Source of the DNA: a virus
Reading direction: 5' to 3' (one strand)
IMG/VR virus record: IMGVR_UViG_3300030102_007788
Location: 32,001 to 96,000 of that record
Length of the DNA: 64,000 nt
Every line of letters starts with the position of its first letter. The first letter of the stretch is position 1. Below the pieces are notes generated by a model, which did not search any database, was not told the DNA's origin, and saw only the letters and a program-made list of their open reading frames with translations. Of the stretch, positions 20,560 to 63,154 are shown one piece after another. The position numbers and the translations under genes were made by a program.

Positions 20560-21033
20560 TTATCTACCGGAACTGCCAAATCCGCCTTCGCCTCTTTGGC
20601 TATTTTCTAATGTTTTCATTTCAATCCATTCTGGCGTGTGGCAACTTTCAATTATGAGTTGAGCCACTCTATCGCCGGGTTTTACGTCAAACTTGTTAGC
20701 TGAACCGAACATAGACTCGTAAACACTCGGCTTTAAATTATAGCCTTCAAAGTTTAGGTTTATCAATAAAATTTTTATTTCACCCCGATAACCTGAATCC
20801 ACGACCCCAGCCATGACATCTATTCCTCTTTTTACAGCCAGTCCACTTCTAGGGGCAATCCGTCCATAAAAACCTTCAGGAATTTCTACGCTAATTCCTG
20901 TCGAAATTAATGTTCTTTGGCCCGGCTCCAAAGTGGCGTACTCTGTTGAAAAAAGGTCAAACCCGGCATCAGAAGTGTTAGCTCGGTAGGGAGCTAAGGC
21001 TTCTTTGTTTATTTTTTTATAATTTATTTTCAT
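20560..21033 (-). CDS. dut: Trimeric dUTPase
   Basis: AGFDL, PRSGL, GVVDSGYRGE, RVAQL, RGEGGFGSSG. Confidence 0.97.
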   Translation of the reverse strand: MKINYKKINKEALAPYRANTSDAGFDLFSTEYATLEPGQRTLISTGISVEIPEGFYGRIAPRSGLAVKRGIDVMAGVVDSGYRGEIKILLINLNFEGYNLKPSVYESMFGSANKFDVKPGDRVAQLIIESCHTPEWIEMKTLENSQRGEGGFGSSGR

Positions 21034-21434
21034 AGTTTAACGCAGTCAATTCCGTAAAAATCAAAAATGTTTAACGCCGCGACATCTCTATCATAAACTT
21101 CTTCATAGACGACTTTTTTAACACCGTATGCTGCTATCATAGTAGCACATGAGGAGCATGGAAGTAGCGTGCATGCAAGGAGATTTACTTCCCCTCTTTT
21201 GACTAAACTCAAGCAGTTAACCTCAGCATGAATCATATAGGGTCTGCGGTGGTTTCGGTTCCGAAAAAATTGATACGAGACATCTTTTCCCGGAGCTAAA
21301 CCGTTGTAGCCAACTGCAACTATCATATTTTTGCTGTTAAGAGCACAGGCTCCGACTTTTTTGTAGATGTCCTCACTCCTTTGCGCAGCGGTCCTAGCAA
21401 TATCTAACGCGTATTTTTCCCAAGAAACTCTCAT
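21030..21434 (-). CDS. dCMP deaminase
   Basis: VGYNG, HAEVN, PCSSC. Confidence 0.92.
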   Translation of the reverse strand: MRVSWEKYALDIARTAAQRSEDIYKKVGACALNSKNMIVAVGYNGLAPGKDVSYQFFRNRNHRRPYMIHAEVNCLSLVKRGEVNLLACTLLPCSSCATMIAAYGVKKVVYEEVYDRDVAALNIFDFYGIDCVKL

Positions 21435-21453
21435 AATCTTCCTTAAAAATCAC

Positions 21454-21482
21454 AACCTAAATCAAACAGGTTGCCAAATCAA
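21454..21482 (-). promoter_or_regulatory. CCTG-spacer promoter (leftward)
   Basis: TTGATT-TGGCAA-CCTG-TTTGATT-TAGGTT. Confidence 0.65.
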
Positions 21483-21495
21483 GAAAAAAAAGTTG

Positions 21496-21525
21496 TTGAC
21501 TTCCCTGCCTGAGTCAATTACAGCT
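21496..21525 (+). promoter_or_regulatory. CCTG-spacer promoter (rightward, before the structured element)
   Basis: TTGACT-TCCCTG-CCTG-AGTCAAT-TACAGC; weak -10. Confidence 0.55.
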
Positions 21526-21815
21526 TGCTCACGTAGCACTTCCGTCTTGCTACGGTAAAAGGTAGGCGGATCCGCAATCTATGTGTCCGGCTCTGCTGTG
21601 GAGACTTGCAACCGGAGGAACTAACTGGCGTGAAAAGGGCGCTTCGTTAGGCGAGTAGTATAGGCGATGTCATATGGGTGGAAACTACCACGCACCCAAA
21701 AAAGGCTAGCCGGGGAGAATTCTCAGGGAAAAGTAAAAAGATTGCCGATGTTCTGGAATAGCCGCCAAAACGGGGAAAGTCTCCGTTTCACTTCGACTTT
21801 CTAGGGAAAAGTTTT
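21525..21815 (+). ncRNA. Candidate structured non-coding RNA, family not recognised
   Basis: GC-rich non-coding island with at least six stems, following a predicted promoter. Confidence 0.55.
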
Positions 21816-21857
21816 ATATATATTTATTTATTTAACTATAGTTAACTTTAATTAAAC

Positions 21858-22454
21858 ATGGATTTTAATTACAAAAATATAGGTATATCCGGGGTCGCAG
21901 GATCCGGCAAAAATACTCTAGCTGAAATACTGGGGCTGTTTTTTTCTAGATTACAGTTGCCGATTAAAGAGCTTTCAATTGCAAGGAACTTAAAGCAGGA
22001 GATAAGCCCCGTCTGTAAGAGTCTTTATTCTATTGATTCTCTTAATTGCTCCAGAGAGGAGAAAAATTTAATCAGACCTATGCTGGTTGCTCACGGAGAA
22101 ATAAAAAGAAAAATGACAGAGGGTACTCATTGGACCTCATTACTGGAGAAAGATTTAGAAAAAGATAAAATAAATATTATTACCGACATAAGATACGCTG
22201 AATATCCCGAGGATGAATATTTTTGGCTTACAAAAAAAGCAAACGGCGTATTGATTCACGTTTCAAGGTACGACGAAATCGATGGAGAAAGACATTTCAT
22301 AAAACCTGCAAATCCGTCTGAGGAGAAAAACGACCATCGAGTAAAAAAATTATCAGATTTTTCCTTAAATTGGAAAACTGAAAAGAATTATGGAGATATG
22401 ATCTTTAACTGCCGAAAATTACTCAAGTGGCTTAAAAAAATATATGTCGAATGA
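21858..22454 (+). CDS. Deoxynucleoside monophosphate kinase
   Basis: GISGVAGSGKNT P-loop; IITDIRYAE. Confidence 0.85.
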   Translation: MDFNYKNIGISGVAGSGKNTLAEILGLFFSRLQLPIKELSIARNLKQEISPVCKSLYSIDSLNCSREEKNLIRPMLVAHGEIKRKMTEGTHWTSLLEKDLEKDKINIITDIRYAEYPEDEYFWLTKKANGVLIHVSRYDEIDGERHFIKPANPSEEKNDHRVKKLSDFSLNWKTEKNYGDMIFNCRKLLKWLKKIYVE

Positions 22455-43956: not shown

Positions 43957-44202
43957 ATGGTTATGGCCAGTTTAGATTTTGTATATGACCTTACAGATAG
44001 ATTTGAAGAAGATAATATTGAGTATGTTGTCGTCGCTCTACGAGAAGGTAAAGAATTAGATAAAGTAGATGTATTTTATAAAACAAAACCAGAGTCAAAG
44101 GCCTCTATGCTTACTGCCTTGGAACAGCTTTCAAAGTTAATAAAAGAAGATGACGGAGATAGTTCAGACGGCAAAAAAAAGAAGAGGCGAAGGAAAAAAT
44201 AA
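43957..44202 (+). CDS. Hypothetical protein
   Basis: ORF with TATAAT just upstream. Confidence 0.6.
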   Translation: MVMASLDFVYDLTDRFEEDNIEYVVVALREGKELDKVDVFYKTKPESKASMLTALEQLSKLIKEDDGDSSDGKKKKRRRKK

Positions 44203-46780
44203 ATTTTCCAGTAGGTTTAAGTCTCTAAACGTTCCCCTACATGGAGTAAGATTACCAACGTTTACTCCTGAAAAAAAATATCTAGAAGAATATGGGGTCG
44301 ATGAATCGGCTTCTAATTTAGAATTCTTGAAGCAGATTTGCCGCAAGAGGTTCAAAGAACTCAAACTCGGGGAGAAAACGAACTCCAAAGAGTACAATGA
44401 CCGAATGATCAAAGAGCTTAACTTGATCGAAGAGTTAGGGTTCGTTGATTATATGCTTCTTGTCTGGAAGGTTATAAGATTCTGCAGGGACGGGGATATA
44501 CCCCTAGGTTTAGGAAGAGGTTCCGCTGCGGGGAGTTTGGTTTTATATCTTCTTCACGTTACCTCTATTGACCCAATCAAGTATGGTTTGTTTTTTGAAA
44601 GATTTGTTTCTAAAGCTCGCGCTAAAAAAAGTGTTGTAGATGGGGTGACTTATCTTGATGGAGACTTGATGTGTGACGTTGATATAGATGTATGTTATTA
44701 CAGGCGTCAAGAGATATTGCAGTACCTCAAACAAGAATTTGAAGGTTATAGTTCTAAAATTTTAACGCTCAACACGCTTTCCGGTAAACTTGTAATGAAG
44801 GAGTGCGGTAAAGTTGTCGCGGAGAAAAATGAAGTTGAAATGAATCAAGTGTCAGGAATGATACCTAAAATTTTTGGTCAGGTTATGGACATAGCCGATG
44901 CAAGAGAAGAGGTTCCTGAGTTTGACGAATGGTGTGATAATAATCCTAAAGTTTTTAAGATTGCTCAAAAGATAAAAGGACTGATTAAAAATAAAGGGGT
45001 TCATGCTTCAGCGGTCATGCTATCTTATCATAAAACTATAGATAGCTGTCCCTGCGAGCTTGACTCATCAAAAGAGCCTGTCTCCTCTTTTGAGGCTGAC
45101 TGGGTTAACAAATTTAATGTTAAATTAGATGTTTTAGGTTTAAGAACTTCTTCCGTGGTTCACGAATGTTGCAAAACGATTAGAGAGATAAGAGGCGAAG
45201 AGCTTTATCCCGAGACTATTGATTTAGATAATCCAGAAATTTATGAGTTATTAAATAGAGGGATGGAGGAAGGCCTCTCAAGCGGACTGTTTCAAATTGA
45301 AGGTGATTTGGCTGCTCAAACTTGCACCAAAGTTAAACCTACCAACTTTGAACATTTAAGTGCTGTTCTAGCACTAGCTAGGCCGGGAGCAATGGACTAC
45401 ATTGATCGTTATGCTGAATACGTTAACGAAAAAATCTATGAACCTGTCCATGAGTTCTTTGATGAGATCTTAGAGGAAACTGGCGGCATCGTTCTTTACC
45501 AAGAACAGATGATGAAGATGGCAAATAAAATCGGCTTCACTCTCGACGAGGCTGAAATTTTACGCCGTATTGTCGGTAAGAAAAAAGTCTCAGAAGTTAA
45601 AAAATGGAAAAAGAAGATTAGAGATAAAGTCAAGGAGAATAATCTAGCAAAGGAAATTGGAGACGTACTTTGGAAAGTATTAGAGGACTCTGCTAATTAC
45701 TCTTACAATAAATCGCATTCGGTTTCTTATGCAGCTTTAGCTGCCGCTACTGCTTACTTAAAATTTAAATATCCTCGTGAATTTTACTTGTCGTTACTTA
45801 AAATGACAAAGTATGAACCTAAACCTTTAGAGGAAATAGCCAGCATATCCCGCGAGCTAAAGTTAATGGGAATTAAATTGCTCGGGCCAAACTTATTGAA
45901 GTCTGAAATGGATTTTTCTGTCGAGGGAGAAAATATTAGATTTGGCTTAACTTCAATTAAGGGTATTGCTGAAAAGTCTATAGAAAAGCTAGAGTCTTTT
46001 AAAGACCAATACTCGAACAAGTTTGAAGTGTTCCAAGGAGCCAACCAAGCAGGGATTGGAGTAGGTATATTATCATCCCTTATTCAAGCGGGGGCTTTGG
46101 ACGGAGATATAAAGCAATCTAGAAGTAAAATAGTAGCCGAAGCACAACTTTGGAATTTACTAACAGCAAGAGAGCGTGGTCTAGTTTTTGATATTGCGGC
46201 TGAATACAATTACGATTTGTCTAAGATAGTTCAAATGATGTTTAAAGAGCTCAAAGATATCAAAGGAAAACCTTTGATTAAAGAGTCACGGATGAACACT
46301 ATCCGAAAACATTTTGCGCCGTATAAAGAAATCTACAATAAAAATAGCGCTAATGAAGATTTTGCAAACTGGTACTATGAAAACATATTACTAGGATATA
46401 CTTACGGTAAAAGATTAAAGGACGTAAGCCCCGAGTACAATCATTTAGTTTCTATTGAAGATGCTTTACAAGCAGGGGAGGGCTCAGTTTCCTTTATCGG
46501 TACTGTTGAAGATACTTGGCTAACTAAAAGTAAGAAGGGAACTCCTTACTTTAAGATAACCATGAAAGATGAATCTGCCGATTGCACCGTTATGATTTTT
46601 TCTAACAAGAAAAAAGACAACATTGAGGAATGTAAACGCGCCAACGATGGAGTGCTACCCAAAAAGGGTAATATTGTAATTATAAAAGGCGTAGTAAAAG
46701 AAGGTAATACTGTTTTTGGTAATTTAGCCAAAGTACAGGATCAAAAAATTTATATGAAATTAAGCGAGATAAAGTCTTGA
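44150..46780 (+). CDS. dnaE: DNA polymerase III alpha catalytic core (no PHP domain)
   Basis: GRGSAAGS, FERF, DVDID, KLDVLG, YQEQ, NKSH, C-terminal OB fold. Confidence 0.95.
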   Translation: MTEIVQTAKKRRGEGKNKFSSRFKSLNVPLHGVRLPTFTPEKKYLEEYGVDESASNLEFLKQICRKRFKELKLGEKTNSKEYNDRMIKELNLIEELGFVDYMLLVWKVIRFCRDGDIPLGLGRGSAAGSLVLYLLHVTSIDPIKYGLFFERFVSKARAKKSVVDGVTYLDGDLMCDVDIDVCYYRRQEILQYLKQEFEGYSSKILTLNTLSGKLVMKECGKVVAEKNEVEMNQVSGMIPKIFGQVMDIADAREEVPEFDEWCDNNPKVFKIAQKIKGLIKNKGVHASAVMLSYHKTIDSCPCELDSSKEPVSSFEADWVNKFNVKLDVLGLRTSSVVHECCKTIREIRGEELYPETIDLDNPEIYELLNRGMEEGLSSGLFQIEGDLAAQTCTKVKPTNFEHLSAVLALARPGAMDYIDRYAEYVNEKIYEPVHEFFDEILEETGGIVLYQEQMMKMANKIGFTLDEAEILRRIVGKKKVSEVKKWKKKIRDKVKENNLAKEIGDVLWKVLEDSANYSYNKSHSVSYAALAAATAYLKFKYPREFYLSLLKMTKYEPKPLEEIASISRELKLMGIKLLGPNLLKSEMDFSVEGENIRFGLTSIKGIAEKSIEKLESFKDQYSNKFEVFQGANQAGIGVGILSSLIQAGALDGDIKQSRSKIVAEAQLWNLLTARERGLVFDIAAEYNYDLSKIVQMMFKELKDIKGKPLIKESRMNTIRKHFAPYKEIYNKNSANEDFANWYYENILLGYTYGKRLKDVSPEYNHLVSIEDALQAGEGSVSFIGTVEDTWLTKSKKGTPYFKITMKDESADCTVMIFSNKKKDNIEECKRANDGVLPKKGNIVIIKGVVKEGNTVFGNLAKVQDQKIYMKLSEIKS

Positions 46781-54161: not shown

Positions 54162-54237
54162 GCCCCGATGGCCGAAAGGATAAGGCAACAGCCTTCTAAG
54201 CTGTAGATTCTAGGTTCGAATCCTAGTCGGGGTACCA
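54162..54237 (+). tRNA. tRNA-Arg (TCT)
   Basis: GCCCCGA/TCGGGGT acceptor stem, ACAGC-CTTCTAA-GCTGT anticodon arm, TTCGAAT T loop, encoded CCA. Confidence 0.95.
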
Positions 54238-60685: not shown

Positions 60686-60714
60686 TTGACTTGTTTCCCT
60701 GCATCAGTTATGCT
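60686..60714 (+). promoter_or_regulatory. CCTG-spacer promoter of rIIA
   Basis: TTGACT-TGTTTC-CCTG-CATCAGT-TATGCT; A/T tracts upstream. Confidence 0.78.
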
Positions 60715-60724
60715 GTTCTTCGTT

Positions 60725-63154
60725 ATGATTACTTCGTCACAACAGACAACGCTAAAACAGTCCGACGATTTCCAGTCGGTATCCTTTGGAATAAAAGAGA
60801 GTGGACTCTCTCATATCTTCAACGTCCTGCGAAATCAATTATATTCTGATAAGATTCTCGCAGTTATTCGTGAGTATTCTACTAATGCGGTAGATGCCCA
60901 CATTGAAGTAGGTAAAGCAGACCTACCTATATTAGTTACTCTCCCCTCTGCTCTTACGCCTGAGTTCAAGGTGCGAGATTTTGGTCGAGGTTTGACAGAA
61001 ACTCAAGTCTCTGAGATTTATGCAATGTATGGTGAATCTACCAAACGAGGCACAAATGAACAGATTGGTCAGTTGGGGCTTGGTTCAAAATCGGCATTCG
61101 CTTATGGAGATAATTTTATCATAAATTCTTATGTTAAGGGAACGAAAACAACATATAATGCCTTTATCGACCCCTCTGATGTTGGTCAGATATCCAAAAT
61201 TCATACCGAAAAGACCGATGAGAAGGATGGCATTGAAATTGTTATACCAGTAAAATCGGATGACCATGACGAGTTTTACAGAAAGGCAGTTCGTTTATAC
61301 AAGTATTTCAAGGTTGTTCCTAGTGTCAAGGGAGCAAGCCAAGAGCAACTAGAAAGAGACTTGGAACAGGATGAAGTTGTCGTTACAAAAGATAACTGGA
61401 GTCTTGTAAAAGGCGACTCGTATGCGGTGATGGGCAACATTGCCTATCCCCTAGACTACTCTGCTTTGAACTTGGGTTGGCAGGATGAGAGAGCAGATTT
61501 AATTTCAGCGGGAGTTGTGATTGATTTTGCGATTGGCGATTTGGAAATTTCTGCTTCCCGTGAAGCATTGCAATATACCGATAAGACAAAAGATGTTATC
61601 ATTAAAAAACTAGAAGCGATTATCAAACAACTACCCGATGTATTGGGCGAGAAGTTTGACGAATGTGATACTTTATGGGATGTAAAGGTTTTATATAATG
61701 AGGCTTTTCGGCATGGAGGTTTTGGTCAAAAGATTCGCAAGATAGTAGAAACCAAGGGTATTTTATGGAATGGTATCAAGGTTACTAATGGAAATTTCAG
61801 CACTCAAAAATGGAAATCTGAGCATCTTGAATTAAAGCATTTTAGTAAACCTAATCATTACGGTAATCGTAAACGTGTTAGGGGCGAGGAAGCTAATAAC
61901 ATTTATGCTAAAAATGATGTTTTAATAATTGTAGATGATTTGCCTACGCATCACGGTAGACTGAATCGTATCGCACCTTTAGTGGAGAATTACGATAAGC
62001 GCGATGAGCAGCACAAGGATACTCCCGTATATGAATCTGTTTATTTGATAAACTTCCGCGAAAGTAAAGCCAAGCAGGAGTTTTACGACCAAACTAAATT
62101 TGATTTTCCTACGAAAAAACTGTCAGAGTATCCCAAGATTGTATTGCGCGATATATACCCAAGCAATTCGACAGTATCGGGAGGCACTACTACTAAAAAC
62201 TCAAAGCATAGCACCAAGGTTTTTTCCTTGGATGCGGAATGCTCTCATGGTCATTATCATAATTGCCGTAGCGACTTCTTTGAGTCTAATGAAGTTGATT
62301 TAGATGAAGGGGGAGTTTATGTCATCGTGGATAAATTTTATTGGGGAAATGACAGGGATGGAGACAAGCATCCCTCGCACCTCGTTAAAAAGGTAAAAGC
62401 ATTAACAAACATAGGTATAGATGTTCCTACTGTTTATGCGATGAAACCTACTGAGAAGAACTTAAAAGCAGTAGACGGCAAGCAATGGACTTACTTTGAA
62501 GATTGGGCGATTGAGGCGTTTCAAAATTATATCGGTGAGCTTGGCTACGTCGAAGATTTATACTTCAAATTGGTAGCAGAAAACCATACCAAGTTATGTG
62601 ACCGCAATGATACATTTTGTGATGCGTTAATAACAATGAGTGAAAAAGATGATAGTTTCATCGACTCACTTCCAGAGTCATTAGCTAAAACATATCTCAA
62701 TCGTTACCATGAAATGAATCGGGAAAGTGGAAGTGAAGCGGATAAAGAGTTATCTAAAATTAGAGACGCTTTCAATACGATTGGCAAATCAACCCGTGAA
62801 TATGGGTATGGTTATTGCGACTCTGAGGAAAAGCTCGAAAAGATTAAGAATCCTGACACAAGAGGCATCCTAGACTATTGTCTGACTAAAGATTGGGATT
62901 GGTTGCGTGAAGCAGAGCATGACTTGAATGCAATGAACGAGGAATGCCAGAAACGCTATAAGATGATTACATTGATGGATGACTCTAACTATAATTGGAG
63001 GAATCAAACCAAGGCTATAAAAGCAGCAAAAGAATACATCACCATAGTTGAAGCGACATATAATATTAAAAAAAAGATAGAAAAAACAAAGGCATCAAAC
63101 GCTGATTTACTCGCAAAGTTTCCAGAGAACATTTTCTTAAACGCTAACGTATAA
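60725..63154 (+). CDS. rIIA: RIIA-like protein (GHKL ATPase)
   Basis: LYSDKILAVIREYSTNAVDAH, DFGRGL, GQLGLGSKS; followed by rIIB. Confidence 0.88.
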   Translation: MITSSQQTTLKQSDDFQSVSFGIKESGLSHIFNVLRNQLYSDKILAVIREYSTNAVDAHIEVGKADLPILVTLPSALTPEFKVRDFGRGLTETQVSEIYAMYGESTKRGTNEQIGQLGLGSKSAFAYGDNFIINSYVKGTKTTYNAFIDPSDVGQISKIHTEKTDEKDGIEIVIPVKSDDHDEFYRKAVRLYKYFKVVPSVKGASQEQLERDLEQDEVVVTKDNWSLVKGDSYAVMGNIAYPLDYSALNLGWQDERADLISAGVVIDFAIGDLEISASREALQYTDKTKDVIIKKLEAIIKQLPDVLGEKFDECDTLWDVKVLYNEAFRHGGFGQKIRKIVETKGILWNGIKVTNGNFSTQKWKSEHLELKHFSKPNHYGNRKRVRGEEANNIYAKNDVLIIVDDLPTHHGRLNRIAPLVENYDKRDEQHKDTPVYESVYLINFRESKAKQEFYDQTKFDFPTKKLSEYPKIVLRDIYPSNSTVSGGTTTKNSKHSTKVFSLDAECSHGHYHNCRSDFFESNEVDLDEGGVYVIVDKFYWGNDRDGDKHPSHLVKKVKALTNIGIDVPTVYAMKPTEKNLKAVDGKQWTYFEDWAIEAFQNYIGELGYVEDLYFKLVAENHTKLCDRNDTFCDALITMSEKDDSFIDSLPESLAKTYLNRYHEMNRESGSEADKELSKIRDAFNTIGKSTREYGYGYCDSEEKLEKIKNPDTRGILDYCLTKDWDWLREAEHDLNAMNEECQKRYKMITLMDDSNYNWRNQTKAIKAAKEYITIVEATYNIKKKIEKTKASNADLLAKFPENIFLNANV

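Follow-up and report, generated by a model that had tools for sequence, protein, structure and literature searches.

A large, pseudoknotted RNA candidate of uncultured marine phages that also occurs on a mobile island in bacteria

Introduction

What is encoded by a GC-rich region without an open reading frame, situated at the strand switch of an otherwise tightly packed phage genome? The window, i.e., the whole stretch of 64,000 nt analysed here, is part of a 170-kb IMG/VR virus record with a GC content of 39%. Genes encoding a dUTPase and a dCMP deaminase run leftward and a dNMP kinase gene runs rightward, with a gap of 424 nt (21435-21857) in between. A preliminary description, made from the sequence alone, regarded this gap as a GC-rich island without a credible ORF located behind a promoter, and proposed either a novel multi-domain non-coding RNA (ncRNA) or a replication origin with a structured primer RNA. 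All motifs quoted in that description were found at their positions. The GC content of the gap core is indeed 50-53%, compared to about 35% in its flanks, and no credible or conserved ORF was detected in the gap. A 45-aa frame (21667-21804) was rejected as a gene, since a 5-nt indel and further indels that are not multiples of three disrupt it in relatives.

All long ORFs across 21858-64000 are located on the plus strand. The replicative polymerase encoded at 44150-46780 (+) belongs to the DnaE (Pol III alpha) type and shares less than 33% identity with that of any cultured phage, an rIIA-like gene is situated at 60686-63154, and the only tRNA gene predicted in the window by ARAGORN is a tRNA-Arg gene at 54162. 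Neither a blastn search of cultured phages with the gap sequence nor a tblastn search of 50,697 phage records with the kinase resulted in a match. Judged by its sequence, the phage belongs to a lineage without cultured relatives.

Results and Discussion

Homologues and Conservation

Starting from the deaminase, 42 related IMG/VR loci were collected, six of which matched the gap in blastn with 72-84% nucleotide identity. In the alignment of these relatives an invariant GTTGAC, a 17-nt spacer and a TAnAAC hexamer precede a block of approximately 290 nt that is rich in compensatory changes. A covariance model (R1) in combination with pattern scans and a kinase-profile search extended the family to 18 IMG/VR members, which fall into two groups: group 1, with scores of 280-330 bits, is close, and group 2, with 52-74 bits and E-values of 1e-17 to 1e-24, is divergent. 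A metagenome scan with a pattern of the 3' end returned 106 stretches, with 80 loci among the matches listed; at least 61 metagenome loci (61 of these 80) match the covariance model, nearly all of them from marine samples. Over the IMG/VR and metagenome matches, E-values range from 1e-16 to 1e-112. Altogether, the covariance model identified at least 71 RNA copies in IMG/VR and marine metagenomes, 58 of which are distinct. The corresponding alignment A9 (71 sequences, 58 distinct) is the basis of the covariation counts given below.

In group 1, identity to the window amounts to 79-87% at the nucleotide level for the RNA (21528-21817, +), 62-68% for the adjacent kinase gene and 73% for the dUTPase gene. 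By this sequence comparison, the predicted RNA is more strongly conserved than the adjoining protein-coding genes. Groups 1 and 2 together span kinases with only 43-48% amino acid identity to that of the window.

Eleven Helices and Three Pseudoknots

The comparative data establish a predicted overall fold of eleven helices and three pseudoknots within approximately 290 nt (Table 1). Five of the seven pairings suggested in the preliminary description are part of it. The stems CGTAGCA/TGCTACG, TCCGG/CCGGA, CTAAC/GTTAG and TGGGTG/CACCCA show covariation in the 58 distinct homologues. GCAATCT and AGATTGC also pair with covariation, but as the nested closing helix of the central domain and not as the supposed pseudoknot. 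The other two pairings had to be abandoned. Instead of forming GGCTA/TAGCC, the GGC pairs with GUC at 21669-21671, and TAGCC lies within the variable hairpin H9. In case of AAACGGGG/CTCCGTTT, one pair is broken in 13 of 58 sequences, the ACG belongs to H9, and AAGUCUCC pairs with loop 4 in all 58.

In the 5' pseudoknot, helix S2 is 99.8% paired with covariation at all seven pairs, and helix S1, which was absent from the model, is 92.7% paired with covariation at five of seven; the crossing loop is A-rich (AAAAGGU). The long-range helix P3 is 99.8% paired and covaries at six of nine pairs, one of which occurs as CG, UG, UA and AU. Every pair of the H4 stem except one covaries. The pairing of loop 4, GGAGACUU, with its 3' strand is canonical in 58 of 58 sequences even though it was absent from the model, and occurs in the states GGAGAC/GUCUCC, GAAGAC/GUCUUC and AGAGAC/GUCUCU. 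The base of H5 is 99.6% paired with covariation at five of five pairs. Depending on the lineage, the pseudoknot between J5/6 and loop 7 is formed by GUAGU:ACUAC, GUAGG:(U/C)CUAC, GAGGUU:GACCUC or GAGGC:GCCUC.

H9 folds into a hairpin in all 40 distinct variants despite their differing sequences. In several independent lineages (L006, L152, L197, L138, L159, L178, L131 and others) it carries an inserted hairpin with a loop of U7-9, the stems of which differ (GUUCA/UGAAC, GUCUCG/GAGAC, CUCA/GAG). H10 occurs as GU-UUC-AC in the window, as GC-UUC-GC in L012 and L195, and as a hairpin of 5-7 bp in group 2. H11 is only a putative helix, since hardly any variation occurs in the last 25 nt (GACUUU...AAAGUUUAU). 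An alternative pairing connects GACUUUC with GAAAGUC (21775-21781) and includes one covarying pair (GC in 44, AU in 6 and AC in 4 sequences). The 3' part thus offers mutually exclusive pairings, loop 4 with AAGUCUCC on the one hand and GAAAGUC with GACUUUC or H11 on the other, an arrangement that by its pairing potential resembles a switch. Two copies of AGGGAAAAG as well as AAAAGG and AAAAAG form invariant, unpaired, purine-rich segments.

Table 1. Coordinates of the locus, of the predicted RNA fold and of related loci (window positions unless a locus is named).
Feature	Position	Strand	Remarks
dUTPase gene	20560-21033	-	
dCMP deaminase gene	21030-21434	-	
Promoter	21484-21524	+	A-tract 21484-21491; -35 TTGACT 21496-21501; 17-nt spacer; -10 TACAGC 21519-21524
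5' H-type pseudoknot	21532-21570	+	S1 21532-21538/21548-21554; S2 21541-21547/21564-21570
Central domain	21571-21748	+	Closed by long-range helix P3, 21571-21580/21739-21748
Hairpin H4	21586-21616	+	Loop strand GGAGACUU (21600-21607) pairs with 21777-21784
Hairpin H5	21621-21650	+	Length varies: ~30 nt in window, ~80 nt in group 2
J5/6 strand GUAGU	21655-21659	+	Pairs with ACUAC in loop 7, 21684-21688
Hairpins H6 and H7, stacked	21663-21711	+	Covariation
H6 strands	21663-21665 and 21669-21671 with 21704-21706 and 21709-21711	+	6/6 pairs covary
H7 strands	21675-21680 with 21693-21698	+	3/5 pairs covary
Small hairpin H8	21713-21724	+	95% paired in group 1; not conserved in group 2
Purine motif AGGGAAAAG, first copy	21725-21733	+	Invariant in group 1
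Variable hairpin H9	21749-21773	+	Base uses ACG of ACGGGG
3' strand AAGUCUCC of loop-4 pseudoknot, then mini-hairpin H10	21777-21794	+	
Putative terminal hairpin H11 GACUUU/AAAGUU	21795-21817	+	Loop CUAGGGA with second AGGGAAAAG, then conserved GUUUAU; near-invariant
A/T-rich spacer	21818-21857	+	Unconserved; 25-110 nt in relatives, 25-45 nt in group 1
dNMP kinase gene (P-loop)	21858-22454	+	phrog_139 match
Type B candidate structured region, ~420-480 nt	L008:2384-2920; L022:2426-2960; L127:942-1511	-; -; +	
Type B relatives	L028, L044, L035, L041-L043		
Type C candidate, ~430 nt	L025:1668-2110; L031:1714-2134; L037:1599-2034	-; -; -	
Type C candidate, further loci	L027:1425-1875; L033:1676-2136	-; -	
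Island spans	L200:1972-5533; L243:615-4176; L154; L195; L252:5865-6164		
Island ORFs			61, 142 (zinc ribbon), 72, 64, 80 aa; LRR or ankyrin cargo

Covariation, Strand and Folding Energy

For the statistics, the structure of A9 was written with three kinds of brackets. Canonical pairs occupy 98.3% of the paired cells, compared to 85.2% after column shuffling and 35-47% when the partners are slid by one to three columns, and the covariation score is 0.418 versus 0.05-0.08 in the slid controls. Homologues had been called for in order to test covariation, and double-sided changes were found at 46 of 65 pairs in the 58 distinct sequences. Since A9 was fitted to nested helices, counts for these helices lean towards the model; the two pseudoknot helices left out of the model are still 93-100% paired. 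Throughout the 58 sequences the helices change in sequence while their register remains constant. G-U pairs are frequent (e.g., UG in 27 and GU in 53 of 58 sequences), and as these would be A-C on the opposite strand, the RNA is assigned to the plus strand. This pattern of substitutions shows that selection works on a plus-strand RNA, in agreement with the earlier proposal of a novel multi-domain ncRNA.

The folding energy of the single sequence is unremarkable compared to shuffled sequences (z = -0.41 for the plus and -1.22 for the minus strand). Due to this ordinary stability, the case for an RNA is comparative and not thermodynamic.

Promoter, 3' End and Spacer

The promoter predicted upstream of the RNA proved to be conserved. 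Its GTTGAC is invariant in alignment A1 and near-invariant across approximately 50 phage loci, in which TTGAC(A/T)-N17-TAnAAn recurs together with the upstream A-tract; the promoter is located 8 nt before the first helix. Transcription would start at about 21530-21532. We infer the 5' end, the 3' end and the existence of a discrete RNA species from the sequence. With AGGGAAAAGTTTAT as promoter consensus, 21 matches were counted in the whole genome, with 17.8 expected, and it was therefore discarded as a consensus for the genome at large. A TCCCCG motif is conserved in the promoter spacer (21502-21518 and equivalent positions) of many group-1 and type-B loci, which suggests an extra protein contact or a regulator site in the promoter.

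No convincing intrinsic terminator was found between the RNA and the kinase gene in the window. The almost pure A/T tract noted behind the RNA is present. It corresponds to the stretch 5' of the kinase gene, which is short and variable, and the role as an unwinding element ascribed to it found no independent support. A promoter-like TTTATA-N18-TATAGT is situated at 21813-21842 and, at the DNA level, the stretch 21795-21817 may double as a TCGACT-N18-TATATT-like promoter of the kinase gene, which lacks a recognisable Shine-Dalgarno sequence. Direct and inverted repeats of the TAACGT or ACGTATTGTTACGT type, some with a period of 11-14 nt, occur 3' of the RNA in group 2 (L128, L129, L131, L168, L178) and in the island loci described below (L154, L160, L195). 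They are absent from group 1 and from the spacer of the window, which carries the palindrome TTAACTATAGTTAA at approximately 21828-21841 in their place. The repeats may be protein-binding sites.

Phage Synteny and a Bacterial Mobile Island

The gene order is constant in approximately 55 phage loci: dUTPase with or without deaminase leftward, followed by promoter, RNA, spacer, dNMP kinase and a sigma-like protein, in some cases with a 146-aa protein encoded between the latter two. In every one of these loci, the RNA is located 25-110 nt upstream of the operon encoding the kinase and the sigma-like protein.

A different context was observed for L154, L195, L159/L200, L160, L243-L248 and L252, where group-1-type RNAs (255-264 bits) reside in DNA of 52-60% GC. 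Near-identical copies are thus present in bacterial DNA of about 55% GC, that of L252 in a Verrucomicrobia MAG (GTDB genome). At these loci, an ORF of 80 aa, which is conserved, precedes the RNA; a gene for a small serine recombinase/invertase (213 aa) and several tiny ORFs are nearby, and genes encoding LRR, ankyrin or hydrolase proteins are found beyond it. A 43.5-kb contig additionally encodes ApbE, thioredoxin and two-component proteins. The island occurs at differing chromosomal sites. No kinase gene is present in the island loci, the TTGACA promoter is likewise absent from them, and two of them continue with a convergent gene. The RNA is independent of any single neighbouring gene.

A tree of the RNA places the island copies in at least two different phage subclades. 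Between L195 and L200, the flanks are 92-100% identical, the centre of the RNA is 60-80% identical, and the 40 nt behind GUUUAU are unrelated. Due to this mosaic structure and to the distribution of the island copies across phage subclades, the RNA has been exchanged or patched between phages and the island. By sequence comparison, the same predicted RNA has passed between phages and a mobile island in bacteria, where its neighbouring genes are different. Verrucomicrobia are a possible host of the phage lineage. With regard to the island proteins, Pfam recognised only resolvase/invertase, zinc ribbon and LRR_5 domains, and PADLOC assigned none of eight tested to a defence family. For the 80-aa protein, neither a Pfam or PHROG family nor an Atlas neighbour nor a homologue in this phage was found.

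Candidate Structured Regions in the Same Slot of Distant Phages

In more distant phages, the kinases of which are 37-58% identical to that of the window, the same slot contains a TTGACA promoter and an ORF-free, GC-richer region of 300-480 nt. Two kinds of candidates were distinguished from the RNA of the window (type A). The conserved type B region is flanked by a near-identical promoter (TTGACA...TAAAAC) on one side and by the kinase homologue on the other. For type C, compensatory changes occur at 20 of 88 predicted pairs, observed in only five sequences, and two of the loci (L031, L025) have an additional TTGACA-N17 promoter between type C and the start codon (ATG) of the kinase gene. In several distant phages, the slot RNA ends in a terminator-like hairpin, with a TTGACA-N17-TAATAT promoter then preceding the kinase gene, which favours separate RNA genes in this slot. 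No homology between type A and types B or C was detected with the covariance model (filters off) or with nhmmer --max, and no Rfam match was obtained for types B and C.

Search for Known Families

The suggested scan of Rfam 15 (4227 models) revealed no known family in the window or in divergent members. No match at the gathering threshold was obtained for 21300-22000; the models included tmRNA, RNase P, 6S, SRP, riboswitches, ribozymes and group I/II introns as well as GOLLD, ROOL, HEARO, OLE and raiA. At E<=10, the best scores in the window were 11-20 bits, compared to gathering thresholds of 56-72, and came from unrelated families on both strands. Nothing consistent emerged from 20 relatives and eight other members. 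ARAGORN predicted neither a tRNA nor a tmRNA in the gap of the window or in five member loci.

Several individual candidates were rejected. 6S RNA is incompatible with the 5' pseudoknot, the branched core and the unpaired ends, and the Rfam 6S model gave no match. In case of a TnpB/IscB omega RNA or Cas12-type scaffold, PF07282 is absent from the 170-kb genome, with matches in control genomes, and HEARO was not matched either; the genes adjoining the RNA encode dUTPase, deaminase and kinase, and no RNA-guided nuclease is among them. A retron/DRT-type ncRNA was discarded as no reverse transcriptase (PF00078) was matched in the genome. Antisense targets in the phage genome are not enriched, with 86 of 281 10-mers of the RNA complemented elsewhere, which is about the chance level (0.33 per 10-mer).

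The signature motifs of the RNA did not occur in the literature searched, and a 2026 Minerva preprint contained nothing relevant to it. A 2023 IMG/VR screen listed 10,006 unnamed candidate structured RNAs (PMC10690425), among which the present RNA may be. Set against Rfam 15, the predicted RNA is a new class that no described family matches.

Evaluation of Alternative Explanations

In our preferred explanation, to which we assign about half of the total probability, 21528-~21815 (+) encodes a large stand-alone ncRNA with a compact fold, which represents a new class. A strong sigma70-type promoter of its own would drive this RNA, and folding would begin no more than a few nucleotides from the 5' end. 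The RNA may be released from the kinase message or terminated before it. Through its invariant purine-rich single strands and rigid pseudoknotted core, it would interact with a conserved macromolecule of the host or the phage at an early stage of infection, and would thereby serve as a scaffold or decoy that binds proteins and not as a sensor for the downstream gene. It is tempting to speculate further that the RNA is the first representative of a previously undescribed class of large ncRNAs of phages, produced early and at a high level and acting in phage-host conflict, a possible but doubtful extension. In that case, an island with a recombinase gene in a marine, Verrucomicrobia-like bacterium would have acquired the RNA several times, or the copy there would have been patched by recombination. 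The turnover of the slot, which harbours at least two other unrelated structured RNAs in sister phage lineages, together with the capture by the island is easier to reconcile with an RNA that decoys or inhibits a host system, or with a catalytic RNA, than with a housekeeping regulator.

The main, though rather unlikely, alternative to a stand-alone RNA is a cis-acting leader of the operon encoding the kinase and the sigma-like protein, i.e., a riboswitch-like or protein-binding regulator or a processive antiterminator similar to put/EAR that would modify the transcribing polymerase. It would explain the fixed position before a kinase homologue in approximately 55 phage loci of both groups, the fact that no strong terminator follows the RNA in the window, the plus-strand genes ahead that extend over more than 40 kb (21858-64000), the alternative pairings in the 3' part, and the occupation of the slot by a structured non-coding region in more distant phages as well. 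With regard to a riboswitch, the observations are divided: the RNA lies upstream of the dNMP kinase gene in all phage loci, but the island copies lack the kinase gene and two of them face a convergent gene, and neither a terminator nor a Shine-Dalgarno sequence of the kinase gene that could be sequestered was found. Furthermore, neither the length nor the sequence of the spacer is conserved, and the 3' region, which would have to serve as the expression platform, is the most invariant part, unlike in known riboswitches. Related slot types part the RNA from the kinase gene by a terminator-like hairpin and a second promoter, and no riboswitch or leader family of Rfam was matched. The assumption of a ribozyme that frees itself from the operon transcript by self-cleavage or self-processing, or performs another catalysis, appears quite improbable. 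Three pseudoknots and many invariant unpaired nucleotides within approximately 290 nt point to a complexity typical of ribozymes and large riboswitches; on the other hand, no conserved context of a cleavage site was seen and the ribozyme families of Rfam were unmatched.

Still less credence is given to the replication origin that had been proposed for this locus. In the version considered here, the structured primer would be like ColE1 RNA II or the T4 R-loop primers, the A/T tract would unwind, and the phage would replicate the island. Such an origin is suggested by the divergent gene junction with an adjacent A/T-rich tract, by the TAACGT-type direct repeats behind the RNA in group 2 phages and the island, and by the capture of the element by a recombinase-bearing mobile island. 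No independent support for it was obtained, since the cumulative GC skew of the whole genome rises near-monotonically and mirrors gene orientation, with a local dip that only marks the strand switch. Moreover, with 25-45 nt in group 1 the A/T tract is short and it lacks conservation, the repeats are missing from the window and from group 1, and a fold with three pseudoknots and invariant loops is needless for a primer. That the region is not an RNA at all, but a DNA-level regulatory region or decayed coding sequence with chance inverted repeats, is extremely improbable. The single-sequence energies no better than those of shuffles would agree with it; compensatory changes at 46 pairs, tolerance of G-U on one strand only, a helix register constant over 58 sequences and indels that are not multiples of three contradict it.

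Likeness to Known Systems and Significance

Among the closest parallels to the proposed stand-alone RNA are the "ornate" ncRNAs GOLLD, ROOL, the raiA motif and OLE of bacteria and phages, which are likewise large, defined by covariation, and composed of many helices, pseudoknots and invariant loops. They also occur in phages and mobile DNA of mostly uncultured organisms, with neighbouring genes that do not reveal their function. The RNA of the window is shorter than GOLLD (about 800 nt), ROOL and OLE (both about 580-610 nt), occupies a fixed syntenic slot with its own consensus promoter, and has no Rfam match. New large RNAs with multiple pseudoknots are rare, and past ones proved to be ribozymes, riboswitches or RNA-only assemblies. 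According to a cryo-EM study, GOLLD and ROOL multimerise (bioRxiv 10.1101/2024.12.08.627333).

With phi29 pRNA, the RNA of the window would share the properties of a stand-alone structured phage RNA with an early promoter and a covarying loop-loop pairing; it differs by the lack of sequence or Rfam similarity, a position away from packaging genes and an unrelated phage lineage with a DnaE-type polymerase. HK022 put and EAR elements are similar in their proximity to an early promoter, their location where a long series of co-directional genes starts, and the lack of a terminator directly behind. These elements comprise about 70-120 nt. Going by their descriptions, the RNA of the window is set apart by a different architecture and by island copies without a following operon. 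ColE1 RNA II and the T4 oriF/oriG transcripts resemble it as promoter-driven structured transcripts running into an A/T-rich stretch, but the skew provides no origin signal here, and the constraints on the fold go far beyond those required of a primer. Cobalamin-type riboswitches have in common with it a multi-helix junction, a hairpin loop pairing with a distant 3' segment, and nucleotide-metabolism genes downstream. In contrast to these, the RNA of the window has no Rfam match at E<=10, its 3' partner strand is invariant and not gene-specific, and it also occurs without such a downstream gene.

With 58 distinct sequences in two deep groups, a defined promoter, a clear model of the secondary structure and three testable pseudoknots, a comparative set is at hand, and the RNA can be used directly for probing, cryo-EM and partner pull-downs. 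Its natural history is unusual in that uncultured marine phages with genomes of 170 kb share it with a mobile island in bacteria, and offers a possible link to a verrucomicrobial host for a phage lineage without cultured relatives. Before the dNMP kinase genes, a conserved "ncRNA slot" appears to extend across a much wider phage clade.
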